From NCBI GenBank assembly GCA_041393445.1, contig JAWKKC010000006.1, positions 29,876 to 93,875 of the forward strand: a DNA stretch of 64,000 nucleotides. Direction: 5' to 3'. Below are positions 24,479 through 56,144 of this stretch, piece after piece. The DNA is from Solirubrobacterales bacterium (GTDB taxonomy: Bacteria; Actinomycetota; Thermoleophilia; Solirubrobacterales; 70-9). The notes under the pieces were generated by a model. The model was not told where the DNA came from, did no database searches, and worked only from the letters and a program-made list of their open reading frames with translations. A program made the position numbers and the translations under genes. Positions within the stretch are counted from its first letter, which is position 1. Each line of letters opens with the position of its first letter.

Positions 24479-24479
24479 C

Positions 24480-25805: not shown

Positions 25806-25807
25806 GG

Positions 25808-27100: not shown

Positions 27101-27101
27101 C

Positions 27102-27752: not shown

Positions 27753-27767
27753 CGGTGCATACGTTAC

Positions 27768-27783
27768 CCGAATATAAATTCGG
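27768..27783. promoter_or_regulatory. Candidate TetR operator (AT-rich palindrome in the promoter region)
   Basis: CCGAAT-ATAA-ATTCGG is a perfect 6-bp inverted repeat 16 nt upstream of the tetR ATG and contains a TATATT -10-like hexamer on the minus strand. A second palindrome, ACCGATG-CATC-CATCGGT (27739-27756), spans the start codon. Confidence 0.4.
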
Positions 27784-27852
27784 TGCAAGGCCGGTCGCGA
27801 TCCGACCCTGCGGCTGGATACCTACATACGGGTTCATAAAATACGGATTCGT

Positions 27853-28899: not shown

Positions 28900-28918
28900 C
28901 AGCGCGGCGAATTCCGGT

Positions 28919-28975
28919 GGGTGGTAGTGGGTGGTAGTCATTTGGGACCGTATAGGTCCCAAATGACTACCACCC
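28919..28975. repeat. 10-bp tandem duplication plus 21-bp perfect palindrome between convergent genes (probable bidirectional terminator)
   Basis: GGGTGGTAGT occurs twice in tandem (28919-28938). GGGTGGTAGTCATTTGGGACC (28929-28949) and GGTCCCAAATGACTACCACCC (28955-28975) form a 21-bp stem with loop GTATA. The element is markedly less GC-rich than its surroundings. Confidence 0.7.
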
Positions 28976-28982
28976 AGGGGGA

Positions 28983-31112
28983 CTATGCCTCGGAGAGGCC
29001 GAGGCGGAGCTGGAGGCGGCGGAGCGGAGCGGGGGCCCACCAGTTCCAGGCGCCGAGCAGGCGCATCAGGGAGGGGACGAGGAGGGCGCGGACGACGGTG
29101 GCGTCGATCAGCACGCCGAACGCCATCCCGATCGCGATCTGCTTGACGAAGAAGACGCTGCTGACCCCAAAGGCGAGGAAGACGAGGGCGATCGCCAGGG
29201 CGGCGGCGGTGATCACCCGACCGGTGCGGGCGATCCCGCCCGCCACCGCCTCCTCGTTGCTCTCGCCGCGGTCGTGGCGCTCCTTGATCCGCGCCATCAC
29301 CAGCACCGCGTAATCGGTGGCGAGGCCGAACAGGACGGCGAAGAGGAAGACCATGCTGGTCGTCTCGATCGCCGCCGGGCCGGTGTAGTCGAGCGGCGCC
29401 TCCAGCCAGCCCTGCTGGAAGGCGAGGACGAGGACGCCGAGCGTCGCCCCGAGGGTGAGGGTGTTCATCAGCAGCGTCTTGATCGGCAGCAGCACCGAGC
29501 CGGTCAGCAGGAAGAGGAGGACGAGGGTGGTGACGGCGACGATCGCGACGACCAACGGGGCGTGCGCGAAGAGGCTCTGCTTCTGGTCAATGAACCCGGC
29601 GGTGTTGCCGGAGACCAGGGTCGCGGCGCCGGGCGGCGGGGCGAGGGCGCGGATCGCCCGCACCGAGTCCTGTGCGGCGCCGTCGAGAGCGGGCCGGTCG
29701 AGCGCGAAGTTGGCGTAGGCGAGGCCCTCGCCGGCCGCCGCGAAGGGGGCGCCGCCGCTCACCCCGGGGACCGTTTCGATCCGCTCGCGCAGCGCCGCCA
29801 ACTGGCCCGGGCCAGCGTCGCCGTCGACGCTCACCGTGACCGCCTCGGTCAGCCCGCGGCCGTAGTGGGAGTCGAGGTACCGGTAGGCGTCGTAGGAGGG
29901 CTGGCCCGGCGGCACCCCTTCGGCGCTGGGGCCGGTCAGGGTGGTCCAGAGCAACGGCGCTGCCGCGGCCAGCAGCAGGGCGCCGCTGGCCAAGGCGACC
30001 GCGACCGGCCGCCGCATCACCCCGCGGGCCAGCCGGTACCAGCCGTCGGAGCGGTCGGAGACGCTCGGCCCGCGGCGGATCGAGAGGGCGTCGATCCGCG
30101 GCCCGAGCACGGCGAGCAGCGAGGGGACGACGAGGATCGCCATCAGGGCCGAGAGGATCGCCACCGAGGCGCCGGCCACCGCCATCGAGTAGAGGAAGCG
30201 CTGCGGCATCACGATCAGTGCTGCCATCGCGGCGGCGACGGTGAGGCCGGAGAAGGCCGCGGTGCGGCCGGCGGTTTGCACGGTGCGCCGATGGGCGGCC
30301 CGCGGCACCGCGCCGCGAGCAAGCTCTTCCCGGTAGCGCGAGACCAGCAGCAGCGCGTAGTCGACGGCCAGGCCGAGGCTGAGCCCAGTGGCGATGTTGA
30401 GCGCGAACAGCGAGGTATCGGCGAAGCTCGACATCACCCGCAGAACCAGCAGGGTGCCGACGATCGAGATCACCCCGACCAGCAGCGGGATCGCCGCCGC
30501 GACGACGCCGCGGAAGACGAAGAGGAGCAGCAGGGCGAGCAGCGGGAAGGCGATCAGCTCGGCCTTGGTCAGGTCCTCGCGGGTCTGGTCGTTGGTCTCG
30601 TTGAAGCCGGCGGCGAAGCCGCCCTGGGCGACGTCGAGCCGGCTCGCCGCGGCCAGCTCGCCTGCCCCTTCGGCCGCCACCCCGCCGGCGTCCTCGAGGT
30701 CGGTGGTGGAGAGGTAGCCGGCGATCGTCGCCGACTCCCCGTCGCCCGCCACCAGGCCGGCGCCGGCCCGCGGCTCGCGCACCGGGTCGACCACGCGGCC
30801 GACGTGCTCGACCGCTTCCAGCCGGCGGCCGAGGCGGGCGACCTCGCGCCGCACCGGGGGCGCCGCGAGGTCGAGCCGGCCGCCGCCGGGCTGCCGCACG
30901 ACGAGGATGATCGCCGGGTTGGGGTTGTAGCCGAGCGAGTCGCGCAGCATCCGCGTCGCCCGCTCGCTCTCGGAGGCGCTGTCGGTGAACCCGGCCGCCT
31001 TCAGGTGGCTCTCGACGTCGCGCCCGAGCATCGCGGCGAGCAGGGCGAAGGCGGCGACGAGGACGAGAACGAGCTTGGGGCGCTGCCAGGTGAGGTCGGC
31101 GATCCGGTCCAT
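28983..31112 (-). CDS. MMPL-family (RND superfamily) membrane transporter, second copy
   Basis: 709 aa with GLAVDYALLLVSRYREEL and GLATDYAVLVMARIKE signatures and 12 predicted TM segments. Confidence 0.88.
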   Translation of the reverse strand: MDRIADLTWQRPKLVLVLVAAFALLAAMLGRDVESHLKAAGFTDSASESERATRMLRDSLGYNPNPAIILVVRQPGGGRLDLAAPPVRREVARLGRRLEAVEHVGRVVDPVREPRAGAGLVAGDGESATIAGYLSTTDLEDAGGVAAEGAGELAAASRLDVAQGGFAAGFNETNDQTREDLTKAELIAFPLLALLLLFVFRGVVAAAIPLLVGVISIVGTLLVLRVMSSFADTSLFALNIATGLSLGLAVDYALLLVSRYREELARGAVPRAAHRRTVQTAGRTAAFSGLTVAAAMAALIVMPQRFLYSMAVAGASVAILSALMAILVVPSLLAVLGPRIDALSIRRGPSVSDRSDGWYRLARGVMRRPVAVALASGALLLAAAAPLLWTTLTGPSAEGVPPGQPSYDAYRYLDSHYGRGLTEAVTVSVDGDAGPGQLAALRERIETVPGVSGGAPFAAAGEGLAYANFALDRPALDGAAQDSVRAIRALAPPPGAATLVSGNTAGFIDQKQSLFAHAPLVVAIVAVTTLVLLFLLTGSVLLPIKTLLMNTLTLGATLGVLVLAFQQGWLEAPLDYTGPAAIETTSMVFLFAVLFGLATDYAVLVMARIKERHDRGESNEEAVAGGIARTGRVITAAALAIALVFLAFGVSSVFFVKQIAIGMAFGVLIDATVVRALLVPSLMRLLGAWNWWAPAPLRRLQLRLGLSEA

Positions 31113-34767: not shown

Positions 34768-36576
34768 ATGAGCGACCTGACCACCGCCCCCGCGCTGACC
34801 ACACACGCAAAGCTGCTGGACTGGGTAGGTGAGATCGCAGCGCTGACCCAGCCCGACGCCGTCCACTGGTGCGACGGCTCGGCCGGTGAGTACGACTCCC
34901 TCGCTCAGACCCTGATCGACGCCGGCACCTTCGAGCGCCTCTCCGACGCCAAGCGTCCCAACTCCTACCTCGCCCTCTCCGACCCGGCCGACGTCGCCCG
35001 GGTCGAGGACCGCACCTTCATCTGCTCCGAGCGGGAGGCCGACGCCGGCCCCAACAACAACTGGCGCGCCCCGGCCGCGATGCGGGCGGAGCTGGACGAC
35101 CTCTTCAAGGGGTGCATGAAGGGCCGCACGATGTACGTGGTGCCGTTCTCGATGGGCCCGATCGGCTCCCACATCTCCGAAATCGGCGTGCAGCTGACCG
35201 ATTCCGCCTACGTCGCGGTCTCGATGCGGATCATGACCCGGATGGGCAAGGCCGCCCTCGACGCGCTCGGCGACGATGGCGAGTTCGTCCCCTGCGTGCA
35301 CTCGGTCGGGATGCCTCTCGGCGAGGGCGTCAAGGACGTCTCCTGGCCCTGCAACGAGGACAACAAGTACATCGTCCACTACCCCGAGACCCGCGAGATC
35401 TGGTCCTTCGGCTCCGGCTACGGCGGCAACGCCCTGCTCGGCAAGAAGTGCTTCGCGCTGCGGATCGCCTCGGCGATGGCGCGCGACGAGGGCTGGTTGG
35501 CCGAGCACATGCTGATCCTCAAGCTGACCTCGCCCGAGGGGGTTGTCAAGTACGTGACCGGCGCCTTCCCGTCGGCCTGCGGCAAGACCAACCTCTCGAT
35601 GATGATCCCGACCCTGCCCGATTGGAAGGTCGAGACGATCGGCGACGACATCGCCTGGATGAAGTTCCACGAGGACGGCCGCCTCTACGCGGTCAACCCC
35701 GAGGCGGGCTTCTTCGGCGTCGCCCCCGGCACCGGTCACAAGACCAACCCGAACGCGATGGAGACGGTCGAGCGGAACACGATCTTCACCAACTGCGCCA
35801 AGACCGACGACGGCGACATCTGGTGGGAGGGGATGACCGGCGAGCCGCCGGAGCACGCGATCGACTGGCATGGCAACGAGTGGTCGCCGGACGCCGAGGC
35901 GCCGGCCGCGCACCCCAACTCACGCTTCACCACGCCGGCCGCGCAGTGCCCCTCGATCGCCCCGGAGTGGGAGGACCCGGCCGGGGTGCCGATCGACGCC
36001 TTCCTGTTCGGCGGTCGCCGCGCCACCACGGTGCCGCTCGTCCACGAGGCCTTCGATTGGGAGCACGGCGTCTTCCTCGGCGCCACGATGTCCTCCGAGA
36101 AGACGGCGGCGGCGGCCGGCAACCTCGGCGAACTGCGCTTCGACCCGATGGCGATGCTGCCCTTCTGCGGCTACAACATGGGCGACTACTTCGGCCACTG
36201 GCTCGAGGTCGCCAAGCGCGAGGGGGCGGTGCTGCCGCGGGTCTTCTACGTCAACTGGTTCCGCAAGGACGCCGACGGCAACTTCCTCTGGCCCGGGTTC
36301 GGCGAGAACAGTCGCGTCCTGGAGTGGATCTTCCGCCGCTGCGAGGGCAAGGCCGAGGCGGTCGAGTCGCCGATCGGGCTGCTGCCCGCGCCCGGCGCGA
36401 TCAACACCGACGGCCTCGAGATCACCACGGAGGCGATGGACGAGCTGCTCTCGGTCGACGCCGAGCTGGTCAAGCAGCAGCTGCCGCAGGTGCGCGAGCA
36501 CCTCGAGCAGTACGGCGAACGGCTGCCCGCCGCGCTCTCCGCGCAGCTGGAGGCCCTCGACCGGCGGCTGGGGTAG
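34768..36576 (+). CDS. pckG: Phosphoenolpyruvate carboxykinase (GTP)
   Basis: 602 aa with FPSACGKTN (kinase-1a), [16 protein letters not shown] and NWFRKD motifs. Confidence 0.95.
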
Positions 36577-36587
36577 GGCGAGCGGCC

Positions 36588-37028
36588 TTGGCGACGGGAA
36601 TCGGGATCGGTATCGACTTGGTCGCGGTCGAGGGGGTCGCCGCCAGCCTCGCGGGGTCCCACCGCGATCACTATCTCGAGCGGATCTACACCGAGCGGGA
36701 GGTCGACGACTGTCGCGGCCCTTCGGGGCGGATCGAGCCGGAGCGCCTGGCGGCCCGCTTCGCCGCCAAGGAGGCGACGATCAAGGCGCTGCCGGGCGCC
36801 GGGGAAGGGGTGAGGCTGACCGGGATCGAAGTCGTCGTGCGGCAGTCCGGGCAGGTCGCGATCGAGCTTTCGGGACGCGCGGCGGAGCTGGCCGCTGAGG
36901 CGGGGATCGAGGACCTGGCGCTGAGCCTGACCCACGAGGGGGGTTTCGCCGCCGCCGTCGTGGTCGGGCTGGGAGATCCCGCCCCGACGGTAATGCCGCG
37001 CCCGAATCTGCCGATCAGTAGACAATGA
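36588..37028 (+). CDS. acpS: Holo-[acyl-carrier-protein] synthase (AcpS-type 4'-phosphopantetheinyl transferase)
   Basis: GIGIDLVAV..., RFAAKEATIKAL and LSLTHEGGFAAAVVV motifs. TTG 36588 is provisional. The stop overlaps the carrier-protein ATG (ATGA at 37025-37028). Confidence 0.75.
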   Translation: MATGIGIGIDLVAVEGVAASLAGSHRDHYLERIYTEREVDDCRGPSGRIEPERLAARFAAKEATIKALPGAGEGVRLTGIEVVVRQSGQVAIELSGRAAELAAEAGIEDLALSLTHEGGFAAAVVVGLGDPAPTVMPRPNLPISRQ

Positions 37029-37267
37029 ACGAGAAGATCCGCCAAGTCATCCAGGACCACGCCCAGCTCTCGGTCGACGTCGGGAGCCTCGGCGACGACG
37101 ACGACCTCTATCAGGCGGGTATGACCTCGCATGCCAGCGTCAACGTGATGATTGCCCTCGAGGACACCTTCGACGTCGAGTTCCTCGACTCGATGCTGAA
37201 GCGCAGCGTCTTCGAGAGCGTGGCCTCGATCTCCGCGGCCCTGGAGGAGATAGGGGTGGCGGCATGA
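37025..37267 (+). CDS. Stand-alone acyl/aminoacyl carrier protein
   Basis: 80 aa with a four-helix pattern. LYQAGMTSHASVNVMIALE occupies the position of the DSL phosphopantetheine-attachment motif, and Ser in MTSH is the candidate site. Confidence 0.8.
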   Translation: MNEKIRQVIQDHAQLSVDVGSLGDDDDLYQAGMTSHASVNVMIALEDTFDVEFLDSMLKRSVFESVASISAALEEIGVAA

Positions 37268-38442
37268 CTGGTTCGCTCGCCACCGAGGCCGACCGTTCCC
37301 TGCTGGACGCGATCTGCCGTATCGGCGAGGAGGTCGCGGCGCCCAACGCCGACGACGTCGATCGCGATGCCCGCTTTCCGGTCGAGGCGGTCGGCGCCCT
37401 GCGCGAGGCCGGCGCCCTCTCGGCGTTCGTGCCCGTCGAGCTCGGTGGAGGGGGCGCTTCGATCGCCGCGATCGCCCAGTCTTGCTTCGAGCTTGGCCGG
37501 CGGTGCGGAGCCACCGCGATGGTCTTCGCGATGCACCAGATCCAGGTCGCTTGCATCGCCCGCCACCTCGAGGGATCGCCCTGGTTCGAGGAATACCTGC
37601 GCGAGGTAGCCGAGACGCAGCGGTTGATCGCCTCAATCACCTCCGAGGTCGGGACCGGCGGCGACATGGGAAGGTCGGTCGCTGCCGTCTCGGAGGCACT
37701 CGACGGCATCGCCGAGTTCGAGAAGCAGGCACCCACCGTCTCCTATGGGGGGCACGCCGACGACTTCTTGACCACCTTGCGCCGGGCTCCCGACGCAGAG
37801 CCCGGTGATCAGGTCCTGGTCCTGACCAGAGCCGACCAGACGCGGCTGGAGCCGCAGGGAACCTGGGACCCGCTCGGGATGCGCGGCACCTGTTCGCCGG
37901 GGTTCCTCGTCAAAGCGAGCTTCTCCGTCGAGCAGACGTTGGCGACTCCGTTCGCGGCGATCTCGACCGAGTCGATGACCCCGATCTCCCACATCCTCTG
38001 GTCCCACGTCTGGCTCGGCATCGCAACCGATGCCTTCGATCGGGCCAGGGCCTTCGTGCGGGCGGCGGCCAAGCGCAAGCCGGGTGAGCCGCTGCCGGCT
38101 GCGAGTCGCCTCTCCCATCTGATGAGCGAGCTCTCGCTGCTGCGGGCGGAGGTCTCGCTGGCCTTGCGCGAGTACTGCGACCTCGCTGACCAGGACCGGC
38201 CGCGACTTTCCGAGATGGCGACGATCCTCCGCTTCAACAACCTCAAGATCGCCGCCTCCGACCAGGCGCCACGGGTTTGTCAGAGCGCCCTCGCCGTCTG
38301 TGGGATCGTCGGCTACAAGAACGACACCCCGTTCAGCGTGGGCCGTCACCTGCGCGACACGATGTCGGCCTGCCTGATGGTCGCCAACGAGCGCATCCAC
38401 GCGACTGACGCCAGCCTGCTGCTGATCGCCAAGGAGGTCTGA
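37264..38442 (+). CDS. Acyl-CoA dehydrogenase-family flavoprotein (probably acting on a carrier-protein-tethered substrate)
   Basis: 392 aa. ACAD-type N-terminal helical, middle beta (ITSEVGTGGD) and C-terminal helical domains. ATGA overlap with the carrier-protein gene. Confidence 0.8.
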   Translation: MTGSLATEADRSLLDAICRIGEEVAAPNADDVDRDARFPVEAVGALREAGALSAFVPVELGGGGASIAAIAQSCFELGRRCGATAMVFAMHQIQVACIARHLEGSPWFEEYLREVAETQRLIASITSEVGTGGDMGRSVAAVSEALDGIAEFEKQAPTVSYGGHADDFLTTLRRAPDAEPGDQVLVLTRADQTRLEPQGTWDPLGMRGTCSPGFLVKASFSVEQTLATPFAAISTESMTPISHILWSHVWLGIATDAFDRARAFVRAAAKRKPGEPLPAASRLSHLMSELSLLRAEVSLALREYCDLADQDRPRLSEMATILRFNNLKIAASDQAPRVCQSALAVCGIVGYKNDTPFSVGRHLRDTMSACLMVANERIHATDASLLLIAKEV

Positions 38443-38444
38443 CC

Positions 38445-39380
38445 GTGGCCGAGTTCCGCCCGGGAACTCGCGAGCAGGACGAGTTCTTGCGTGAGCTCGT
38501 CGAAGCCGGCCTGCTGGTCGAGAGCGGCGTCCCCGGCGTCTACGGTCGCGGCACCGCTTTCGAGCGTGTCCGGGCCGGCTTCGATGCCCTGGTCAGCGAC
38601 GCCGCCGCCGCCGAATCGGCGGAGCGCCTCGCCTTCCCACCCCTGCTGCCCCGTGATCAGCTCGAGCGGATCGGGTACCTGAAGTCATTCCCGCACCTGG
38701 TCGGATCCGTCTTCGCCTTCGAGGGCGATGAGGGTGATGCCGCCGCCCAGGAGGAGCTCGCGTCCCGGCACGAGGACTGGAGCGGATTCCAGGAGATGAC
38801 CGATCTCGTGCTCACGCCGGCTGCCTGCTACCCGGTTTACCCGGCGGTCGCCGCCCGCGGTCCGTTGGCGGCGGGCGGAGTCACGGTCGACGCCGGGGGC
38901 TCCTACGTGTTCCGCCACGAGCCCTCCGGCGATCCAGCCCGGCTGCAGATGTTCCACCAGCGCGAGATCGTCCGCATCGCCGAGCCCGAGACGGTTGCCG
39001 TCTGGCGCGAGAGCTGGCGCGACCGCTCGGTCGAGCTGTTGCGCTCGGTCGGGCTCGAGGCGCGGTTCGACGTCGCATCCGACCCGTTCTTCGGGCGCAG
39101 CGGCCGGCTCCTTGCCCGCAGCCAGCGCTCGCAGGAGCTGAAGTTCGAGGTCCTGGTCCCGATCGCCGGCCCCGAGCCGACCGCCGTCGCCTCCTTCAAC
39201 TACCACCAGGACCATTTCACCGAGACCTACGGAATCGAGATCGACGCGCCCGATCCGACCGCCCACACCGCCTGCCTGGGCTTCGGCTTGGAGCGGATCG
39301 CGCTGGCCCTGCTGCGCGAGCACGGGCTCGAGCCCGGTGAGTGGCCCGAGGACGTCCGTGAGAAGTTGGGGCTCCGGTGA
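38445..39380 (+). CDS. Amino acid--[carrier-protein] ligase (truncated class II aaRS / SerRS-like catalytic core)
   Basis: 311 aa with AAGGAGGT SD 7 nt upstream of the GTG. Class II motif-2-like YVFRHEPSGDPARLQMFHQREIV and motif-3-like CLGFGLERIALALL are present. No tRNA-binding or anticodon-binding domain is present. Confidence 0.8.
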   Translation: MAEFRPGTREQDEFLRELVEAGLLVESGVPGVYGRGTAFERVRAGFDALVSDAAAAESAERLAFPPLLPRDQLERIGYLKSFPHLVGSVFAFEGDEGDAAAQEELASRHEDWSGFQEMTDLVLTPAACYPVYPAVAARGPLAAGGVTVDAGGSYVFRHEPSGDPARLQMFHQREIVRIAEPETVAVWRESWRDRSVELLRSVGLEARFDVASDPFFGRSGRLLARSQRSQELKFEVLVPIAGPEPTAVASFNYHQDHFTETYGIEIDAPDPTAHTACLGFGLERIALALLREHGLEPGEWPEDVREKLGLR

Positions 39381-40357
39381 GCGCGGCCGCGGACGCCGGG
39401 TTGGTGAGCCTCATCGGGCTGGACCCGCAGAGCTATGCGCCGCACTCGCTGCACGGTCCTGAGCGAACCTACCTCGAAACCAATTGCTACACGGACATCC
39501 TGATCGAGTTCGTCCACGCGCGGGGCGACGAGCCGCTGGCGATGATGGGCTGCACCCTGGGCATCGACTTCGAGGGCGATCAGTGGACGTTCTTCAAGCC
39601 GCGGCCGGAGGACCTGCTCCGGCTCTACGGCATCGACGTCCACGAGATGCAGCCCTACCGGCCGCTGCCCGACCAGATCGCCGAGCAGATCGAGGTTGGC
39701 CGGACCCTGATCGTGGAGCTCGACTCCTGGTACCTGCCGGACACCGCCGCGACCAGCTATCGCGCCGAGCACGTCAAGAGCTCGGTGGTCGCCGAGGCCA
39801 TCGACCGGGACTCCGAACGTCTGCGTTACTTCCACGGGGCCGGCTATCACGAGCTCGAGGGGGAGGACTACCGGGGGATCTTCCGGATCGGCCTCGACCT
39901 GCCAGGCGACGTGCTGCCCCCTTACACGGAGCTGGCGCGGCTCGATGCCGGCCCGAGGCTGTCGGGGGCGGAGCTGCGGACCGCGACGCTCGAGCTGCTG
40001 GCCGAGAACGTTGCGCGGCGCCCTGGCGACAACCCGTTCGAGCGCTTCGGATTCCAGCTCCGCGAGGATCTGCCGCGGCTGCTCGACGGGGATGTCCAGG
40101 ACTACCACGACTACGCGTTCGCGACGGTCAGGATGGCGGGCTCGGCCTTCGAGGCGGCCGGCTCCCACCTCCGCTGGCTGCTGGAGCCCGGCGAGGCGGC
40201 GGACGCGGTGGCCGCCTTCGAGGAGATCGTCGAGGGCTGCAAGACGCTCTCGTTCAAGCTGGCGCGGCGGCGCAGTTTCGATCCCGGGCCGGCGATCGAG
40301 TCGCTCGCGAGCTCTTGGGACGCAGGTTTCGCGGGACTGACCCGTGTCGCCGGCTGA
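39377..40357 (+). CDS. DUF1839-like protein (possible BtrH-like Cys acyltransferase)
   Basis: 326 aa with GTGA overlap to the ligase. N-terminal ETNCYTDILIEFVHARG resembles the catalytic-Cys helix of papain-fold/BtrH_N proteins. The family assignment is from memory. Confidence 0.6.
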   Translation: MSAAADAGLVSLIGLDPQSYAPHSLHGPERTYLETNCYTDILIEFVHARGDEPLAMMGCTLGIDFEGDQWTFFKPRPEDLLRLYGIDVHEMQPYRPLPDQIAEQIEVGRTLIVELDSWYLPDTAATSYRAEHVKSSVVAEAIDRDSERLRYFHGAGYHELEGEDYRGIFRIGLDLPGDVLPPYTELARLDAGPRLSGAELRTATLELLAENVARRPGDNPFERFGFQLREDLPRLLDGDVQDYHDYAFATVRMAGSAFEAAGSHLRWLLEPGEAADAVAAFEEIVEGCKTLSFKLARRRSFDPGPAIESLASSWDAGFAGLTRVAG

Positions 40358-42911
40358 GTCGATCGAGGTAGGGAACGGCTGGGAAGCGGCTCGCTGCGAG
40401 CCCGACTCGTGCCCGGATCCCGGCGCCGCGGCGGCGCTGGACTGGATGCCCGCCCGCGTGCCGGGCACCGCGGCAGCGGCGCTCGCCGCTCGCGACGGAG
40501 CCGGGCCGGATCAGGGCGACGAGGACCTCGACGCGGAGGACTGGTGGTTTCGGACCGTGCTGAGGGCACCGCCGCCGCGCCCCGGCGAGGAGCTGGTACT
40601 GCGGATCGGCGGCATCGCCACCGTCTCGGAGACCTACCTCGGCGGCCGGCTCGTCGCCGAGTGCGAATCGATGTTCCTCGCCCAGGAGATCGACGTCGGC
40701 GACCAGCTTGACGAGGAGGGCGTCGAGCTGGCGATCCGGTGCAGGGCCCTGGGCCCGCTGCTCGGGTCGCGGCGCAAGCCGCGCGCCCGCTGGCGCACGC
40801 GGCTCGTCGACGGCCGGCTGCGGTTCTTCCGCACCATGCTGCTCGGCCGCGCACCGGGTTTCGCGCCCGCGCCCGCGGCGGTCGGGCCGTGGCGCCCGGT
40901 CACCCTCGAGCGGCGCGGCGGCATCCTCGCCGACGGGGTGCGGCTCCGCACCCGGCTCGACGGCGAGGTGGGGGTGCTCGCGGCGAGCGGTGCGCTGAGC
41001 TGCCTCGGGGTCGAGTGCCCGGGCCGCGTCGAGTTGGAGCTCGAAGGCCCCTCGGGCCGTCACCGGGCCGAGCTCACCGTCGCCTCCGACCCGGCCGGGG
41101 CCACCCTGAGCGGTGAGCTGCGGGTCGCCGAAGTCGCCCGCTGGTGGCCCCATACCCACGGCGATCCCACTCTCCACGCGGTGCGCCTCCACGTCGATTG
41201 CGGCGAGGGCCCCGTCGTCTGCGACCTGGGCAAGGTCGGCTTCCGCGAGCTCTCGGGCTCCCGCGCCGGGGGCCAGGACCCGGCGGTGGAGGGTCTCGCG
41301 CTGGCCGTCAACGGCGTCCCGGTGTTCGCCCGCGGGGCGGTTTGGACGTCGCCCGACCCAGTTGGCCTGGCCCCCGGCGAGGAGGAGCTGCGAACGCAGC
41401 TCGAGCAGGTTCGGCGGGCGGGCATGAACATCGTCCGGGTGGTCGGGACCGGCGCCTACGAGAGCCCGCGCTTCCACGAGCTCTGCGACGAGCTCGGAAT
41501 CCTCGTCTGGCAGGACTTCATGTTCGCCAACCTCGACTACCCCGTCGCGGACGAGGCCTTCGGGGCGTTGGTCCGGGCCGAGCTGGAGGCCGTGCTGGCG
41601 AGGGTCGGCGGGCGGCCCAGTCTCGCCGTTCTCTGCGGCAACAGCGAGGTCGAGCAGCAGGCGGCGATGATGGGCCTCGACCCCGACCTGGGCCGGGGGG
41701 AGCTCTTCGGCGAGCTGCTTCCCGGGTTGATCGAGGAAGCCGAGGTCGACGCCGTCTACCTGCCCTCGGCGCCATGTGGCGGCGACCTTCCTTTCCGGGC
41801 CGACCGCGGCGTCGCCAACTACTTCGGGGTCGGCGGGTACCGCCGGCCGCTCGAGGACGCCCGCCTCGCCGACGTTCGCTTCGCCTCCGAGTGCCTCGCC
41901 TTCGCCAACGTCCCCGAGGACGAGGCGCTGAAACGGATCGCCGCCCCGGAGGCGGGTGCCGCGGTCGTCCACCACCCGCGCTGGAAGGCCGGCGTTCCCC
42001 GCGACGTCGGCGCCGGCTGGGACTTCGACGACGTTCGCGACCACTACCTCGCGCTGCTCTTCGGCGTCGACCCCGTCGAGTTGCGCAGGTTCGACCCGGA
42101 GCGTTATCTGGAGCTCTCCCGCGCGGTTGGCGGCGAGGCGATGGCCGCGGTGTTCGGCGAGTGGCGCCGCGCCGCGTCCCTCTGTGCGGGCGGCATCGTG
42201 CTCTGGTTGCGCGATCTCGCTCCCGGTGCCGGCTGGGGGCTGCTCGACGACGCCGGGGTCCCCAAGGAGGCCTTCCACCGGTTGCGCCGGGTGCTGGCGC
42301 CGCGAGCCGTGTGGCTGACCGACGAGGGCCTCAACGGGGTCGGAGTGCACATCGCCAACGATCGGTCGGAGCCGCTCGAGGGGACTCTGCGGGTGCGCCT
42401 CTACCGCGACCTGGAAAGGCTGGTCGGCGAGACGGAGCAGACGATCGCGGTCCCCGGCCACGGACAGCTGAGTCGCGATCTCGAGGGCCTGCTGGGCCAC
42501 TTCGCCGACGCCTCCTGGGCCTACCGGTTCGGCCCGCCCGCCCAGGACCTGATCGTGGCCAGCGTCGAGGACGAGTCGACCGGCACGACCCCGATCTCCG
42601 AGGCGATGCATTTTCCAGTCGGGCTTCCCGCCGTGTCCGAGCCCGTCGATCGGCTCGGGATCGAGGCCCGGGCCGAGCTCGTCGCCGCGGGCACCGTCGC
42701 TCTCACGCTGCTGGCGCGGCGGCTTCTGGTCGGCGTTCGGCTCGACGCTCCGGGGCTCGAGGCCGAGGATCGGTGCTTCGCCGTGCCGCCTGCGAGCGAG
42801 CGGGTGTTTATGCTGCGGGCTACGAGCAGGGGGGAGATCGGCAACGCGGTGAGGGTGCGCGCCCTCAACGCGGCGGGAAGCGTCACGGTCCCAATCGTCC
42901 CGCAAAGCTGA
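40344..42911 (+). CDS. Glycoside hydrolase family 2-like protein (beta-mannosidase-like architecture)
   Basis: 855 aa with N-terminal sugar-binding-like WEAA...WMPARVPGTAAAAL...EDWWFRT. The TIM-barrel region has MNIVRVVGTGAYE and ILVWQDFMFAN. Candidate acid/base is in CGNSEVEQ and candidate nucleophile in FASECLAFANVP. Confidence 0.7.
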   Translation: MSPAESIEVGNGWEAARCEPDSCPDPGAAAALDWMPARVPGTAAAALAARDGAGPDQGDEDLDAEDWWFRTVLRAPPPRPGEELVLRIGGIATVSETYLGGRLVAECESMFLAQEIDVGDQLDEEGVELAIRCRALGPLLGSRRKPRARWRTRLVDGRLRFFRTMLLGRAPGFAPAPAAVGPWRPVTLERRGGILADGVRLRTRLDGEVGVLAASGALSCLGVECPGRVELELEGPSGRHRAELTVASDPAGATLSGELRVAEVARWWPHTHGDPTLHAVRLHVDCGEGPVVCDLGKVGFRELSGSRAGGQDPAVEGLALAVNGVPVFARGAVWTSPDPVGLAPGEEELRTQLEQVRRAGMNIVRVVGTGAYESPRFHELCDELGILVWQDFMFANLDYPVADEAFGALVRAELEAVLARVGGRPSLAVLCGNSEVEQQAAMMGLDPDLGRGELFGELLPGLIEEAEVDAVYLPSAPCGGDLPFRADRGVANYFGVGGYRRPLEDARLADVRFASECLAFANVPEDEALKRIAAPEAGAAVVHHPRWKAGVPRDVGAGWDFDDVRDHYLALLFGVDPVELRRFDPERYLELSRAVGGEAMAAVFGEWRRAASLCAGGIVLWLRDLAPGAGWGLLDDAGVPKEAFHRLRRVLAPRAVWLTDEGLNGVGVHIANDRSEPLEGTLRVRLYRDLERLVGETEQTIAVPGHGQLSRDLEGLLGHFADASWAYRFGPPAQDLIVASVEDESTGTTPISEAMHFPVGLPAVSEPVDRLGIEARAELVAAGTVALTLLARRLLVGVRLDAPGLEAEDRCFAVPPASERVFMLRATSRGEIGNAVRVRALNAAGSVTVPIVPQS

Positions 42912-44665
42912 TGCCCTGTTCAGAGCCGCTTTACCTCGACACCGCGGTCGGCCCCGCCTTCGCGCTGGTCGACGCCCCCGCCGACCGGGTCGGCACCGCC
43001 GGATCGGCGGTGGTCGTCTCGCCCCCGTGGGGCTGGGAGGAGGTCGCTTCCTACCGGGTCCGTCGCTCCTGGGCACGGGCGCTTGCCGAGGCGGGACATC
43101 CGACCCTGCGACTGACTCCCCCCGGGACTGGCGACAGCGCTGGCTCGCCGGGCAGCCCAGGCCTCGTGGCCGCTTGGGTCGAGGCGATCGCGGCAGCCGC
43201 CGGGTGGCTGCGCCGCTCGACCGGGGTTGGCCGGGTGGCGCTGCTTGGCCTCGGGCTCGGCGGGCTGGTCGGGCTCGAGGCGGTCGCCGCCGGCGCGGCG
43301 ATCGACGACGTCGTGCTCTGGGCAATCCCGCTGAGCGGCAGGCGATTCGCCCGCGAGACCAACGCCTTCGCCGCGATGCAGGAGTGGACCGCTGACGGCG
43401 ACGCCGTTCTGCAGGCCGGCCTGCCCGAGGGCTGGATCGAGGCGGGCGGGTTCGCGATGAGCGCGGCGACGATGGCGGAACTGGAGGACCTGAAACCCCG
43501 CCTCGGGCCCGAGGCGGCGGCCGACCGCGCTCTTCTGCTCGGCCGGGACGGGGTCGCCGCGCCCGACGGCCTGGTCGGGATGCTCGGCGAGGCCGGGGTG
43601 GAGACCGAGACCGCTGCGGGGACGGGATGGGCGAGGATGGTCTCCCATCCCGAGCGTGCCGAGCTGCCGGCAACGGTGGTCGACGAGGTCCACGCCTGGC
43701 TGGCATCCGGGTCTGCGACCGGGGCGGAGCCCATGCCTGCCGGAGCGGCCCGGTCGGCACTCGAGGAGAACGGCGTCAGGGAGTCCGGCGCGATCCTGCC
43801 CCAGCCTTGGGGCGATGCTTTCGGGGTCGAAGCCAGGCCGCTCGGGCCCCCCGACCCCTACCTGCACGCGGTCTTCCTCAACGCCGGCGCAGTGCGCCAC
43901 GTCGGCCCCAACCGGATGTGGGTGGAGACGGCGCGGGCCTGGGCCCGGCGTGGCGTGACGTCGTCGCGGGTCGACCTCGAGGGGATCGGCGAGGCCGACG
44001 GCGAGCCCAGCGGCGTGCTCCAGGTCGGCGACTTCTACGACGACCGCTACGTCGCGCAGGTGCGGGCCCTGCTCGATTCGCTCGCCGCGAAGAACCCGGA
44101 GCGGCGATTCGTTCTCGTCGGTCTCTGTGCCGGGGCGTACTGGGCGTTTCGCGCGGCGGTCGAGGACGAGCGGGTCCTCGGTGCGTTCCTGGTCAACGCC
44201 GGGGCGCTGCGATGGCACCCCGACCTGTTGCTGGTCCGCGAGGCGCGCAAGGGGAAGCAGGCGCTCAGGGGAAGGTCGTGGAAGAAGGTCCTGCAGGGCA
44301 AAGTCGGCCCGGCCCGGGTGGCCTCCTTTGCCCGGTCCTCGCTTGCGAGTGGCTTGCAGCACCTCGGCGGCTCCAACTGGCAGGAGTCGCTGAGCGAGGA
44401 GATCGAAGCCGACCTCGATGGCCTGCGCGAGTCGGAGACCTCGGTTTGGATGGCGTTCAGCGGGTCCGAGCCGCTTGGCCAGGAGGTCCTGCAGATGGGG
44501 CTCGCCGACCGCCTGGACCGGTGGCCGAACCTGCAGCTCGAGGCGCTTCCGGGCGAAGACCACACCCTGCGGCCAATCGCGGCTCAGCGTGCCGCGCGAG
44601 ACCTCCTGGATCGTGAGCTGGAAGGCTTGATCGCCCGCGCTCGCGGACGATCCAAGACGGCCTAG
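42911..44665 (+). CDS. Two-domain alpha/beta-hydrolase-fold protein (first elbow GLGLGG, second elbow GLCAG)
   Basis: 584 aa. The ATG shares one nt with the GH2 stop (TGATG). Each half has a PGTGDSAG / EGIGEADG loop followed by a nucleophile-elbow-like strand-turn. Cys406 codon TGT is at 44126-44128. A C-terminal His lies in [10 protein letters not shown]. Confidence 0.7.
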
Positions 44666-50768: not shown

Positions 50769-51848
50769 CTAGTCGACGTCGCGCAGGATCACGTCGGCGA
50801 TCCGCTCGGCCGCATGGCCATCCCAAAGGGGTGGCGGCTCGCCCCGCCCCGCCGGGGCCGACTCGAGCGCCGTCGGTATGCCGGCGATCGCCTCCGGATC
50901 GAGCCCCAGCAGGGTGTTGGTCCCGAGGCTCATGGTCACCGGTCGCTCCGTGTTGTCGCGCAGCGTGAAGCAGGGGACGCCGAGGAAGGTCGTCTCCTCC
51001 TGGATCCCCCCGGAGTCGGTCAGCACGCCGCGGGCGTCGGCGACCAGCGAGAGGAAGTCCAGATAGCCCTGCGGCTCGGTGAGGACGAGGCCCGGGTGCT
51101 CTGACTCGACGCTCTCCATCATCTTGCGAGTTCGGGGGTGGACCGGGAAGACGACCGGGATCTCGGCCGCCAAGCCGGCCAGCCGGCGGACGGTCTCGGG
51201 CAGAAGGGGTCCGTCGACCAGCGCCGGCCGGTGCAGGGTGACGAGAACGTAGTTCCCGGGGTCGACGCCGAGGCGGCTTGCCGTCCCGGCGGCCCTGAAC
51301 CTGTCTTCGAGGGCAACCAGCGAATCGATCATCGTGTTGCCGACCATGTGCATCCGGGACTCCGGGATGCCTTCGGCGCGGAGGTTCTCGATCGCCTCCT
51401 CGCTATGGATGAAGAGCCACTCCGCGAAGCGGTCGGAGACGATTCGGTTGACCTCCTCGGGCATCGTCATGTCGAAGCTGCGCAGCCCCGACTCGATGTG
51501 GCCGACCGGGATTCCCAGCTTCACCGCGGTCAGGGAGGCGGCGAGCGTCGAGTTGACGTCGCCGGGCGCGATCACCAGGTCCGGCTGCTCCTCCAGCAGG
51601 ACCGGCTCCAGCCGCTCCATCGTGCGCGCGGTCTGCACCGCGTGGGTGCCGGAGCCGACCCGCAGCATGTGATCGGGCGCCGGCACGCCGAGCTCCTCGA
51701 GGAAGATCTCCGACATCAACTTGTCGTAGTGCTGGCCGGTGTGGACGATCGCGTGCCTTCCCTCCGGGAGCCGTTCCCGCAGGGCCGCGAACACCGGTGC
51801 CGTCTTGACGAAGTTCGGCCGGGTCCCGACCACGTAGAGGATTCGCAT
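50769..51848 (-). CDS. wecB: UDP-N-acetylglucosamine 2-epimerase (non-hydrolysing)
   Basis: 359 aa with VGTRPNFVKTAPV, HTGQHYD, VLTDSGGIQEE and GTN motifs. Confidence 0.9.
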   Translation of the reverse strand: MRILYVVGTRPNFVKTAPVFAALRERLPEGRHAIVHTGQHYDKLMSEIFLEELGVPAPDHMLRVGSGTHAVQTARTMERLEPVLLEEQPDLVIAPGDVNSTLAASLTAVKLGIPVGHIESGLRSFDMTMPEEVNRIVSDRFAEWLFIHSEEAIENLRAEGIPESRMHMVGNTMIDSLVALEDRFRAAGTASRLGVDPGNYVLVTLHRPALVDGPLLPETVRRLAGLAAEIPVVFPVHPRTRKMMESVESEHPGLVLTEPQGYLDFLSLVADARGVLTDSGGIQEETTFLGVPCFTLRDNTERPVTMSLGTNTLLGLDPEAIAGIPTALESAPAGRGEPPPLWDGHAAERIADVILRDVD

Positions 51849-51853
51849 CGGCC

Positions 51854-53101
51854 TCAGAGGCGCTCGACGTTCTCTGCCTCGATGCCGCGGGTGACCCCGC
51901 GTAAGTCGAGCACCTGGCTGGCTTCGAGAGCGACCTGCCCGTAGTCGATCCCGGGGTGGGCGGTGACGATCACCACGATGTCGGCGGCGGGGACCGCGGA
52001 CGCGAGCTCCACCGAGGCGAGCCCCTCCTTCGTCAGCTCCGGGACGAACGGGTCGTGGTAGGAGATATCGGCCTCGAGGACGTCGAGCAGGCGGATCATC
52101 TTCAGCGCCGGCGACTCGCGGATATCGCCGCTGCCGGCCTTGTAGCTCGCTCCGAGGACGAGGACCTTCGACCCCTTGACCGCCTTGCCGGCGGCGTTGA
52201 GGGAGCGCTCGATCCGCTCCACGCAGAAGGCTGGCTGGGCCTGGTTGACTTTGCCCGCCAACTCGATGAACTCCGGATAGAAGTCGTGCTCGCGGGCCTT
52301 GAAGGCGAGGTAGAAGGGATCGACCGGCAGGCAGTGGCCGCCCATGCCGGGGCCGGGCTCGAACCGCATGAAGCCGAACGGCTTGGTCGAGGCGGCGTCG
52401 ATCACCTCCCAGACGTCGATCTCGAGGCGGTGGCAGAGCTGTGCGAGCTCGTTGACGAGGGCGATGTTCACCGAGCGGAAGATGTTCTCGAGCAGCTTCG
52501 AGAGCTCGGCTGCCTCCGGTGAAGAGAGGACGACGACGGTGTCGCAGATCTCCGCGTACAGCTGCCGAGCCCGCTCGGCGCAGGAGGCGGTCATGCCGCC
52601 GACCAGCTTCGGCGTGGTGCGCACGGTGAAGTCGGTGCGGCCGGGGTCGATCCGCTCCGGGGAGAAGGCGAGGTGGAAGTCCTCGCCGGCCTTCATGCCC
52701 GACGCCTCGAGGATCGGCGCCACCCGCTCCCGGGTCGTGCCCGGATAGGTGGTCGACTCCAGGACGACCAGCTGGCCGGGTTGCAGGACCTGGGCCACCG
52801 ACTCGGCGGAATCGACCAGGTAGTTGAGGTCAGGTGCCCGGGCGCTGGTCAGCGGGGTCGGCACGCAGATGACCACCGCCTCGCAGGAGGCCAGGTCGGC
52901 GTGCCTGGAAGTCGGGTGGAGGCGGTCCTCGATCGCCGCCAGGGTCGCGTCGTCGATGTCGTCGATGTAGCTGGAGCTGCGCTTCAGCGCCTCGACCTTG
53001 GACCCGTCGACGTCGAAGCAGACGACGTCGTGAGACGCTTCGCCGAAGGCCACCGCGAGGGGCAGCCCGACGTATCCGAGGCCGACGATTCCGATCTTCA
53101 T
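51854..53101 (-). CDS. Nucleotide-sugar 6-dehydrogenase (UDP-ManNAc/UDP-GlcNAc dehydrogenase-like)
   Basis: MKIGIVGLGYVGLPLA Rossmann start, GGHCLPVDP catalytic Cys and 415 aa. It lies 5 nt downstream of wecB, which suggests a WecC-like role. Confidence 0.85.
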   Translation of the reverse strand: MKIGIVGLGYVGLPLAVAFGEASHDVVCFDVDGSKVEALKRSSSYIDDIDDATLAAIEDRLHPTSRHADLASCEAVVICVPTPLTSARAPDLNYLVDSAESVAQVLQPGQLVVLESTTYPGTTRERVAPILEASGMKAGEDFHLAFSPERIDPGRTDFTVRTTPKLVGGMTASCAERARQLYAEICDTVVVLSSPEAAELSKLLENIFRSVNIALVNELAQLCHRLEIDVWEVIDAASTKPFGFMRFEPGPGMGGHCLPVDPFYLAFKAREHDFYPEFIELAGKVNQAQPAFCVERIERSLNAAGKAVKGSKVLVLGASYKAGSGDIRESPALKMIRLLDVLEADISYHDPFVPELTKEGLASVELASAVPAADIVVIVTAHPGIDYGQVALEASQVLDLRGVTRGIEAENVERL

Positions 53102-53186
53102 CGGCCGAGAGTCTAGATATCAGCGCCGGACACCAGGCTGGGGATACGATCCGGCGCCGAAACGACAGGAGGGATCGATCGCCGAC

Positions 53187-53708
53187 ATGAGCGAGCAGAG
53201 AAACGAGTTCACCACCAACCAGGCCGAGCGAGAGGCAAGCGGCGCCCACAGCTACGGGCGCTACCTCGAGGAGTTCGAGGTCGGGGCGGTCTACCGGCAC
53301 TGGCCCGCGAAGACCGTGACCGAGGCCGACGATCACCTCTTCTGCCTGATCACGATGAACCACCACCCGCTGCACATCAACGACGTCTACGCGAGCGAGT
53401 CGCAGCAGGGGAGGAACGTCGTGGTCGGCCCCCTGGTCTACTCGCTGGCACTGGGCATGTCGGTCTCCGACGTCTCGGGCAAGGCGATCGCCAACCTCGC
53501 CACCGAGGAGCTCAGCCACCCCAACCCGGTCTTTCACGGCGACACCCTGTTCTGCGAGACCGAGGTGCTCGACGTGAAGCCGTCGAGCTCCAAGCCCGAC
53601 CGCGGGGTGGTCAAGGTCCACACCCGGGTGCTCAACCAGGACGGCGTCCTGGTCGCCGAGTTCAAGCGTCTCGTGCTGGTGCCGCGGCGGCCGGGCGGCT
53701 CAGAGTAG
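53187..53708 (+). CDS. MaoC-like single hot-dog hydratase
   Basis: 173 aa with FCLITMNHHPLHIND and PVFHGDTL motifs. Confidence 0.78.
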   Translation: MSEQRNEFTTNQAEREASGAHSYGRYLEEFEVGAVYRHWPAKTVTEADDHLFCLITMNHHPLHINDVYASESQQGRNVVVGPLVYSLALGMSVSDVSGKAIANLATEELSHPNPVFHGDTLFCETEVLDVKPSSSKPDRGVVKVHTRVLNQDGVLVAEFKRLVLVPRRPGGSE

Positions 53709-56044: not shown

Positions 56045-56144
56045 CGCCGCCTCCCCGGCTGCCGCAGGATTCGGTGAGGCCTGCGCGAAGTTGGGTTTCT
56101 GACCGGGCTCAATGGCGTCATGAGGCTATGGAATACGCCCGGGC

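Follow-up and report, generated by a model that had tools for sequence, protein, structure and literature searches.

A seven-gene operon around an amino acid:carrier-protein ligase in a Solirubrobacterales genome is one form of a widespread cluster that may make an oxidised-aminoacyl sugar

We analysed a 64,000 nt stretch of DNA (~70% GC; the whole of it is termed the window) from an uncultured Solirubrobacterales bacterium, in which positions 36588-44665 are filled by seven same-strand (+) open reading frames (ORFs), among them a gene for an amino acid:[carrier protein] ligase that is homologous to aminoacyl-tRNA synthetases (aaRSs). This operon is the Thermoleophilia form, distinguished by an in-cluster AcpS gene, of a known and widespread cluster. 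The reading that we tentatively favour is that it encodes a stand-alone cytoplasmic pathway, independent of nonribosomal peptide synthetases (NRPSs), in which thioesters of a carrier protein (CP) lead to an oxidised-aminoacyl sugar or glycoconjugate. A sugar is also our first candidate for the acceptor, proposed with the same reserve. The narrower idea that the pathway N-acylates a 2-amino sugar (possibly of the β-mannosamine/mannosaminuronate type) with an oxidised Gly or Ala unit is doubtful. The seven genes are as follows.

36588..37028, + strand: AcpS-type 4′-phosphopantetheinyl transferase (PPTase), 146 aa, TTG start (PF01648, TIGR00556)
37025..37267, + strand: aminoacyl carrier protein, 80 aa (NF005480, PF00550, Atu2571 match)
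37264..38442, + strand: flavoenzyme of the acyl-CoA dehydrogenase (ACAD) fold, 392 aa (Acyl-CoA_dh_N, Acyl-CoA_dh_1)
38445..39380, + strand: amino acid:[carrier protein] ligase, 311 aa (NF005479, Bll0957 structures)
39377..40357, + strand: DUF1839 protein, 326 aa (PF08893, AlphaFold2 (AF2) model)
40344..42911, + strand: β-mannosidase-like protein of glycoside hydrolase family 2 (GH2), 855 aa (5n6u and 2je8 matches)
42911..44665, + strand: tandem α/β hydrolase, 584 aa (AF2 model, two domains)

All six junctions between these genes overlap or nearly touch. The PPTase and CP genes share ATGA at 37025-37028, the CP and ACAD genes share ATGA at 37264-37267, and the ACAD and ligase genes are separated by a 2-nt gap (TGA-CC-GTG, 38440-38447). 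The ligase and DUF1839 genes share GTGA at 39377-39380, the DUF1839 and GH2 genes overlap by 14 nt (from GTG at 40344 to TGA at 40355-40357), and the GH2 and hydrolase genes meet in TGATG at 42909-42913. No second run of six such junctions is present anywhere in the window. These ORFs and junctions had been listed in a first-pass annotation made from the sequence alone; they are present base for base, and all seven gene assignments proposed there hold in Pfam/NCBIfam, PDB sequence and Foldseek searches. Shine-Dalgarno-like sequences (GGAGGAG and AAGGAGG) precede the ACAD and ligase starts, and the five ORFs from CP to GH2 have a GC content at third codon positions of 0.88-0.91, which agrees with real genes in a 70% GC genome. 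Neither a signal peptide nor a transmembrane segment is predicted in any of the seven products, which therefore look cytoplasmic, and a cell-surface target is not implied.

The gene order recurs in distant relatives. When one genome from each GTDB species was scanned with a pattern, at least 593 relatives of the ligase were found, and the best 80 of these at least 593 ligase loci (58-80% identity) were taken with 10-kb flanks and searched by tblastn with all seven proteins. Synteny counts cover 86 loci in total, labelled in the style L001. The exact order PPTase-CP-ACAD-ligase-DUF1839-GH2-hydrolase on one strand is found in 34 of the 86. It is intact up to GH2 in 12 more, several of which meet a contig end, and complete apart from the PPTase in a further 9; the remainder represent small rearrangements. 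Because the order recurs in 34 of 86 loci and most others are near-complete, the arrangement is far beyond chance. The cluster is carried by members of the Solirubrobacterales, Gaiellales, Chloroflexia, Anaerolineaceae and Limnocylindrales, by a metagenome-assembled genome (MAG) of the Acidobacteria and by alphaproteobacterial MAGs. Azospirillum brasilense Sp7 and Mycetohabitans rhizoxinica have an annotated six-gene core with no PPTase, comprising acyl carrier protein (ACP), ACAD, ligase, DUF1839, GH2 (‘β-mannosidase’) and an α/β hydrolase of ~600 aa.

An explanation by chance juxtaposition, or by independent transcription units whose overlaps merely reflect compact high-GC packing, could draw on the 4-nt overlaps that are common in the window (54767/54770, 62938/62941) and on a promoter and terminator scan that gave no signal either way. 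Specifically, no sigma-70-like promoter was found between 33.5 and 46.5 kb with a consensus that is uninformative for a high-GC actinobacterium, and the only terminator-like hairpin in that interval lies inside the GH2 gene, a number below the shuffled expectation. The same order in dozens of species-level genomes from several phyla effectively refutes this explanation, as does the independent reporting of the neighbourhood on two occasions (PMC2922099, PMC10318531), and we give it almost no credence. The earlier claim that the genes form one operon is thus supported by conserved synteny. The first-pass annotation also remarked that the operon begins just after pckG. The distance is indeed 11 nt (pckG stop TAG 36574-36576, TTG start at 36588), but this adjacency is incidental and is found only in four of the closest relatives (L002, L003, L007, L008), and pckG was ruled out as a member. 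Chorismate-binding genes resembling menF lie downstream in eight loci beside menD; these were likewise rejected as members, probably representing lineage synteny.

The first two steps of the proposed pathway very probably take place as outlined below, judging by analogy with characterised homologues. The PPTase consists of a single ACPS domain, as expected of the AcpS type, and scores 45.4 bits with PF01648 (cut-off 25) and 73.7 with TIGR00556 (cut-off 45.35), falling below the cut-offs of the equivalog models for housekeeping AcpS. It occupies this position in most Thermoleophilia loci and in a Priestia plasmid cluster, and is lacking from proteobacterial clusters. The CP passes NF005480 (104 bits; cut-off 72) and PF00550 (27; cut-off 20.8), and among proteins of solved structure it is closest to the ‘aminoacyl carrier protein’ Atu2571 (2jq4, 4h2w_C; phmmer E=6e-14). 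Its predicted phosphopantetheine serine is Ser35 (codon 37127-37129), which lies within an AG..SHASV motif kept in 80 CP orthologues. In the first step, family membership indicates with high confidence that the PPTase would convert the 80-aa CP to its holo form at Ser35.

The ligase scores 391.2 bits with NF005479 (cut-off 357) and matches the Bll0957 structures 3mey (E=4e-74) and 4h2w (E=6e-76) at 46% identity. Its alignment with methanogen-type seryl-tRNA synthetase (SerRS; 3w3s, 2cim) is confined to the catalytic core (~residues 307-509), the Pfam search revealed no further domain, and the 311 aa of the protein leave no room for a tRNA-binding domain. Above-cut-off NF005479 membership and the core-only alignment bear out its earlier description as a truncated SerRS-like enzyme without a tRNA-binding domain. 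Residues C128, E174 and C277 align with the zinc-ligand positions of Bll0957, which we take to be Cys131, Glu176 and Cys279, and each is at least 90% conserved among 86 orthologues. The gene for the cognate CP sits two genes 5′ of the ligase gene. In the second step the ligase would activate a small amino acid with ATP and attach it as a thioester to the phosphopantetheine arm, in keeping with the biochemistry shown for its homologues, Bll0957 and Atu2573. Gly or Ala is the probable substrate; both the recognition helix and the CP are of the Atu2573/Atu2571 type. The Bll0957/Bsr0959 and Atu2573/Atu2571 systems (PDB entries 3mey, 4h2s-4h2y and 2jq4) were reportedly characterised by Mocibob et al. 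in 2010 and 2013, and Bll0957 is said to be specific for Gly and Atu2573 for Ala. Secondary sources agree that such ligases load Gly or Ala onto a neighbouring CP, and a 2022 review called their biological role unknown (PMC9437257).

The third enzyme is less conventional than its annotation implies. It matches PF02771 (51.6; cut-off 22.9) and, narrowly, PF00441 (23.1; cut-off 22.4), with no match to the ACAD middle domain in the Pfam search. The position equivalent to the catalytic Glu376 of medium-chain acyl-CoA dehydrogenase (MCAD), eight residues past the invariant R364-D365, is residue 373, where 76 of 77 orthologues have Val or Ile. This comparison concerns the MCAD Glu376 position; the position of Glu254 in isovaleryl-CoA dehydrogenase (IVD) is not reliably alignable, and all PDB alignments of the protein end directly after the RD motif. 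Residues N375, R377 and W250 are invariant, and E/D376 and H243 nearly so. The best PDB matches are generic ACADs (1e-14 to 1e-11), followed by the ACAD-fold oxygenases, namely the nitrososynthases DnmZ, KijD3 and ORF36 and DszC (1e-11 to 1e-7). Neither NCBIfam nor the PDB assigns a subfamily, the best candidate being Rv1679/FadE16 with 113 bits against a cut-off of 600. Since the canonical Glu is replaced and similarity to oxygenases is nearly equal, we refer to an ACAD-fold flavoenzyme rather than to a dehydrogenase. The first-pass annotation had expected a dehydrogenation of −2 Da, which is doubtful given the Val/Ile at the catalytic Glu position and a similarity to N-oxygenases that is about as good; this flavoenzyme is probably no simple dehydrogenase. 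In the third step, the enzyme would oxidise the CP-tethered residue. With the canonical Glu base missing, C-N oxidation or N/C-oxygenation would be as likely as α,β-dehydrogenation.

The same findings bear on fatty-acid or lipid processing, in which a fatty acyl chain would be the substrate of the ACP and ACAD, and proteins linked to lipid or phospholipid that of DUF1839. Such a role agrees with the generic ACP, ACAD and α/β-hydrolase annotations, and a lipid/phospholipid function for DUF1839 appears as a functional guess in the tables of Ozhelvaci and Steczkiewicz (2023; PMC10318531). However, the CP is of the aminoacyl-CP type and its loader is an amino-acid-specific aaRS homologue, the operon contains no genes for a ketosynthase (KS), acyltransferase (AT) or acyl-CoA ligase, and the base required to dehydrogenate an acyl thioester is missing from the ACAD, all of which makes this explanation very improbable.

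The product of the fifth gene belongs to DUF1839 (PF08893, E=7e-97), a family already classed as papain-like (Ozhelvaci and Steczkiewicz, 2023; PMC10318531). Our AF2 model, built from a 50-sequence alignment (pLDDT 85.5, pTM 0.86), consists of a papain-like α/β domain at the N-terminal end and a helical bundle at the C-terminal end, with the invariant Cys37 at the N-terminus of a helix. This residue lies in a conserved E-T-N-C37-Y-x-D motif whose Asp40 is also invariant, and H153, D143, D164 and H132 are invariant in 50 close homologues. When the model was compared with 350,000 PDB chains by Foldseek, just two matches were significant: AziU3/U2 (7wuw; E=3e-6) and CtaG (9qvk; E=4e-5, TM-score 0.57-0.60). 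CtaG is a papain-like enzyme that moves an acyl group from the thioester of a peptidyl carrier protein (PCP) to its Cys11 and then to an amine in a ping-pong reaction (Gude et al., 2026; PMC12865890). The fold is common to BtrH, which transfers from an ACP to an aminoglycoside amine, and to AsbE (PMC12865890). The earlier label ‘BtrH-like’ for DUF1839 gains support at the level of fold, through CtaG and AziU3/U2, but none at the level of sequence. From the model, DUF1839 is rather likely to be a Cys-dependent transacylase that empties the CP. In the fourth step, as the fold match to CtaG suggests, Cys37 would accept the acyl group and hand it on by a ping-pong mechanism to a nucleophile, most likely the amino or hydroxyl group of a sugar.

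The resemblance to CtaG could also be read as a sign of thiotemplated oligopeptide synthesis without an NRPS, with DUF1839 acting between charged CPs to form short Gly/Ala peptides, the hydrolase releasing or cyclising them and the GH2 protein serving a separate or later glycosylation step. One of the two significant structural matches, CtaG, does link two PCP-bound substrates, and the original authors suggested a connection of the ligases with nonribosomal peptide synthesis (summarised in PMC9437257 and PMC2922099). But the operon has a single CP and a single ligase, the CtaG relatives BtrH and AsbE take free acceptors (PMC12865890), and the constant presence of GH2 would go unexplained. We regard oligopeptide synthesis as quite improbable. 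No condensation (C), adenylation (ANL) or KS domain was detected in the seven operon ORFs, and no C or KS domain in 33 other window ORFs that were scanned, in line with the earlier statement that no NRPS or polyketide synthase (PKS) module is present. The scan of these 33 ORFs did locate a stand-alone AMP-binding enzyme (19501-20964) beside ACAD and thiolase genes.

The sixth protein matches the β-mannosidases 5n6u and 2je8 over most or all of its length (E~1e-44). The catalytic acid/base and nucleophile glutamates, E435 and E516, align with those of BtMan2A and are kept in 61 of 61 sequences, and the WWP..G and LVWQDFMFA motifs are common to the GH2 protein and β-mannosidases. The residue before the acid/base, an Asn in the characterised enzymes, is Ser434 here and a Ser in 60 of the 61 sequences. 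The WDW motif that shapes the −1 subsite of β-mannosidases aligns, with moderate confidence, to P-G-F. Two further motifs, R.PRARWR (residues 143-151) and GR.PG (residues 168-172), are kept across the GH2-like family and not found in characterised β-mannosidases; a possible ligand for them is an anionic group, for example a uronate, a phosphate or the carrier protein. In the fifth and weakest step, the GH2 protein may supply, bind or trim the glycosyl partner.

An AF2 model of the last protein (61 sequences; pLDDT 90.2, pTM 0.91) shows two canonical α/β-hydrolase domains, and conservation was mapped onto its strand-elbow-helix positions. In the N-terminal domain the nucleophile position is occupied by Gly115 (86-100% conserved), and His246 is conserved in close relatives only. 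Nearly all homologues have G-I/L-G-L-G-G at residues 113-118 of this domain, and Asp213 is retained. The C-terminal domain has a conserved triad comprising Cys406 in a G-x-Cys-x-G elbow (100%), His551 (96%) and Glu520 (91%). In α/β-fold acyltransferases such as PhaC and the Cys-type thioesterase domains, a Cys nucleophile favours transfer over hydrolysis. By analogy, if a thioester-bound acyl group passes to Cys406, transfer seems more probable than simple hydrolysis, and we read the hydrolase in this way because of its Cys nucleophile. Also in the fifth step, the Cys-His-Glu domain would act as a second thioester-accepting enzyme for the CP, with an off-loading or proof-reading role. Foldseek returned more than 1,000 generic esterases and lipases at 12-19% identity with no specific relative, and the idea that the protein is a polymerase was dropped since no match of the polyhydroxyalkanoate (PHA) synthase type was among them. 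The best NCBIfam models are hydr2_PEP (TIGR03101) for aa 6-193, with 66.2 against a cut-off of 202.75, and hydr1_PEP (TIGR03100) for aa 326-553, with 61.9 against 168.45.

Variant clusters reveal which parts of the system can be separated. Minimal (PPTase)-CP-ligase-tandem hydrolase modules without the ACAD, DUF1839 and GH2 genes are present in L005, L009, L062, L073 and L075, and the retention of the hydrolase in these modules ties it directly to the CP and ligase. In L023 and L062, the CP-ligase-hydrolase genes are accompanied by a ~40%-identical ACAD and by an ATP-grasp enzyme with an L-amino-acid-ligase C-terminal domain that replaces DUF1839 and GH2. A plasmid of Priestia aryabhattai (p-LAD4; L083) carries the order acpS-ACP-ACAD-ligase-DMT transporter-ATP-grasp-hydrolase-alanine permease (AlaP)-alanine racemase (Alr), in which the hydrolase is an α/β hydrolase unrelated to the tandem protein. 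The permease and racemase genes hint that alanine is the substrate of the Priestia cluster. That an ATP-grasp enzyme takes their place shows DUF1839 and GH2 to be an exchangeable downstream module. The clusters of this second type span L062:9337-16660, L023:6194-12621 and L083:7133-15692.

A more distant arrangement is present at L086:6209-11078 on a plasmid of Streptomyces sp. NBC_00984, where a 34%-identical aaRS-like hypothetical protein lies within an NRPS/PKS cluster. The cassette has the order 3-hydroxyacyl-CoA dehydrogenase, PCP, ACAD, aaRS-like loader and acyltransferase. It resembles the aminomalonyl-ACP cassette of zwittermicin, and by this analogy looks like an aminomalonyl-ACP-type extender-unit cassette in which an aaRS-like loader replaces the adenylation (A) domain.

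In 17 of the 86 loci the cluster is directly adjoined by a gene for a class I SAM-dependent methyltransferase (~270 aa), of which the window has none. The protein has an LELGCGAGR motif and a weak match to NodS; its gene, placed ahead of the PPTase gene or behind the hydrolase gene, often shares their strand and overlaps its neighbour (for example L059:7316-8182, L048:7343-8179, L044:6170-6994, L038:16264-17082 and L002:16236-17042). This enzyme looks like an optional eighth member.

The variants raise the possibility that the cluster is at its core a building-block factory, in which the CP, ligase, ACAD and hydrolase tether, oxidise and release a Gly- or Ala-derived acid, and DUF1839/GH2 or the ATP-grasp enzyme are interchangeable tailoring functions. 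The acid freed by the Cys-hydrolase would be of a keto, imino, N-oxy or dehydro type, and unstable or non-proteinogenic. Minimal CP-ligase-hydrolase modules that do without DUF1839 and GH2 (L005, L009, L075) speak for this possibility, as do the pairing of an L-amino-acid-ligase-type enzyme with the CP-ligase-ACAD core in the ATP-grasp clusters (L023, L062, Priestia) and the Streptomyces cassette with its dehydrogenase, PCP, ACAD, loader and AT inside an NRPS/PKS cluster (L086). In contrast, at least 60 loci hold DUF1839 and GH2 fixed between ligase and hydrolase with tight junctions, which argues for one integrated pathway; the Cys nucleophile of the hydrolase favours transfer over hydrolysis; and the ACADs of the ATP-grasp clusters are merely ~40% identical to the one described here. 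We consider release of a free building block unlikely, though it is the main rival of the favoured pathway.

Several observations weigh against the oxidised-aminoacyl sugar pathway that we favour. The ATP-grasp variants agree better with a modified amino acid that is set free than with a sugar conjugate. The flavoenzyme matches true ACADs and ACAD-fold oxygenases to a similar degree, and its reaction is not assignable. A DUF1839 profile found 0 matches among PDB sequences at E<=10, the Pfam BtrH_N family was not hit, and a published model of DUF1839 has a C-(S/T)-H site instead of Cys-His-Asp (PMC10318531). DUF1839 and the hydrolase, both Cys-dependent, compete for a single transfer step. The GH2 protein passes only the N-terminal-domain model of Pfam, leaving the TIM-barrel model unmatched, its −1 subsite is unlike that of characterised β-mannosidases, and it may not act on a sugar that bears the amino acid. 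Finally, the association with glycan genes is loose and could be lineage synteny.

This last point concerns the wider surroundings. The operon is flanked on both sides by blocks of central-metabolism genes: sucCD (minus strand), an HxlR regulator and pckG on the 5′ side, and an HpcH/HpaI aldolase (minus strand), an aminotransferase IV, a GATase and a second ACAD on the 3′ side. A polysaccharide cluster begins ~6 kb downstream (50769-63777) and encodes a UDP-GlcNAc 2-epimerase, a UDP-sugar dehydrogenase, two FemAB/Acetyltransf_6 proteins, a Wzy_C protein, a glucuronyl C5-epimerase-like protein, a GT4 glycosyltransferase and a polysaccharide deacetylase. An acceptor of the ManNAc(A) type, or a deacetylated amino sugar, could come from this cluster. 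In L003 an epimerase, a Fem-like gene, a methyltransferase and a dehydrogenase directly follow the operon, and at other loci the link is loose. Fourteen loci have GT4 genes no more than a few kb from the cluster, and the Burkholderia gladioli cluster has genes for an undecaprenyl-phosphate (Und-P) glucose phosphotransferase and a mannose-1-phosphate (Man-1-P) guanylyltransferase nearby. These glycan neighbours are weakly consistent with a sugar-related role.

Elsewhere in the window, a region resembling a lipid-metabolism locus (12250-31112), apparently unrelated to the operon, encodes two MMPL transporters, the AMP-binding enzyme, a 602-aa ACAD and a thiolase, together with a GGDEF-EAL protein and a DUF255 thioredoxin-like protein. 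An Rfam scan of the whole window gave no match in or near the operon. It identified a bacterial RNase P RNA at 7253-7589 (+; 204 bits), a c-di-AMP (ydaO-type) riboswitch at 7677-7821 (+; 97 bits), which begins less than 90 nt past the RNase P RNA and overlaps the start of an ORF (7665-8303), and a tRNA gene at 5033-5118 (−; 50.7 bits).

Much of the logic set out above has precedents. Aravind, de Souza and Iyer (2010; Biol Direct 5:48, added note; PMC2922099) named as neighbours an ACP, a redox enzyme, the ‘highly conserved uncharacterized protein’ Atu2574, a glycosidase and liposaccharide genes. They predicted that Atu2574, a DUF1839 protein, joins an amino acid to a sugar amine at the cell surface, with the redox enzyme altering the aminoacyl group, ‘probably via monoxygenation’ (PMC2922099). 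Ozhelvaci and Steczkiewicz (2023; PMC10318531) later reported ACP-ACAD-ligase-DUF1839-GH2 as a constant neighbourhood, and these five genes are adjacent, in this order and on one strand, both here and in relatives. The first-pass annotation offered the locus as a new downstream pathway; as the prediction was published in 2010 (PMC2922099) and the neighbourhood in 2023 (PMC10318531), that hypothesis is a rediscovery. No paper identifying the product of the cluster was found in the literature. The sole expression data found there come from Bradyrhizobium diazoefficiens, where bll0957 and bll0958 (acd) are up ~3-fold in a phaR mutant under microaerobic conditions and have predicted PhaR-box motifs upstream (PMC10888616).

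What the present analysis adds is the fold link between DUF1839 and CtaG and AziU3/U2, the Cys-His-Glu hydrolase, the absence of the canonical Glu from the ACAD, and the remodelled −1 subsite of the GH2 protein. It also offers sharper targets, namely Cys37 of DUF1839 as a CtaG-like acyl-enzyme and Cys406 of the hydrolase as a second thioester acceptor. The question of what role the ligases play dates from 2010, and these enzymes have been cited as an extant bridge between ribosomal peptide chemistry and its thioester-based counterpart. The hosts of the cluster include the plant-associated models Bradyrhizobium, Agrobacterium, Azospirillum and Mycetohabitans, and its occurrence in at least 593 species-level genomes makes it likely that the missing product is a common but unrecognised metabolite or envelope modification. 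If the doubtful N-acylation of a 2-amino sugar is real, this pathway, spread across phyla, would yield an aminoacyl-sugar metabolite of the cytoplasm, or a glycan decoration, of a class not known before. It would involve oxidation of an aminoacyl thioester by an ACAD-fold enzyme that has no Glu base of the usual kind, and a GH2 protein whose rebuilt −1 subsite (Asn to Ser, WDW lost, Arg-rich motif) serves an amino sugar. Likewise, the tandem pseudo-hydrolase/Cys-hydrolase would be a new kind of carrier-protein off-loader.

Compared with the published proposals (Aravind et al., 2010; Ozhelvaci and Steczkiewicz, 2023), the neighbourhood and essentially the logic are shared: a ligase and ACP, a redox step, amide formation by DUF1839 and a glycosidase. 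However, neither proposal counted the PPTase or the tandem Cys-hydrolase among the members, the redox enzyme is of the ACAD fold here and of the Rossmann fold in the 2010 proposal, and the proteins encoded here look cytoplasmic whereas that proposal placed the sugar target at the cell surface.

Among known enzymes, the best curated matches of the two hydrolase halves are the exosortase A-associated hydrolases 1 and 2, which are matched in the order hydr2 then hydr1. Those are separate proteins, in contrast to the single fused chain encoded here, and the scores are far below the model cut-offs. No exosortase or PEP-CTERM genes were seen here. In polysaccharide loci the TIGR03100/TIGR03101 pair is accompanied by an ACP and an adenylating ligase, and a TIGR03100 protein is present in the exopolysaccharide (EPS) cluster Bcam1330-1341 of Burkholderia cenocepacia. 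The GH2 protein is similar in length to BtMan2A (2je8) and DtMan (5n6u), aligns with them across most of its sequence and keeps both glutamates, but has SE in place of their NE motif, P-G-F in place of WDW, and the additional Arg-rich motif.

The MshC/BshC and Dlt systems share the concept of an aaRS-like or adenylating enzyme that puts an amino acid on a sugar amine or glycopolymer. The class I homologue of cysteinyl-tRNA synthetase (CysRS) MshC acts directly, with no carrier protein. Dlt uses a small dedicated carrier protein with an ANL-type ligase and the membrane proteins DltB and DltD, and neither these two nor an ANL-type ligase is present in the operon. An analogy of the MshC/BshC/Dlt type was drawn in the 2010 proposal as well (PMC2922099).

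The Bll0957/Atu2573 systems share with the present operon the ligase family, the Zn-site residues, the lack of a tRNA-binding domain and a CP of the Atu2571 type. The order CP-ACAD-ligase-DUF1839 is also shared, with bll0958 annotated as acd beside bll0957 and Atu2574 as an uncharacterised neighbour. An in-cluster AcpS is found in the Thermoleophilia MAG version and not in the proteobacterial clusters, and the CP-binding helix of the ligase is nearer to the Atu-type variant (4h2w) than to wild-type Bll0957.

The papain-like ligases CtaG, BtrH and AsbE, and AziU3/U2, have in common with DUF1839 a bipartite fold with the Cys at a helix N-terminus, but DUF1839 has no detectable sequence similarity to CtaG or BtrH and the TM-scores are only 0.57-0.60. 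CtaG joins two PCP-bound substrates, whereas BtrH and AsbE use free acceptors (PMC12865890). In the CtaG/BtrH/AsbE class, as for DUF1839, the gene adjoins those for a stand-alone carrier protein and a stand-alone loader; the loader is an adenylation-domain or ATP-grasp enzyme in that class and an aaRS homologue here. The reaction of BtrH, acylation of an aminoglycoside amine from an ACP thioester, is of the type that we propose for DUF1839.

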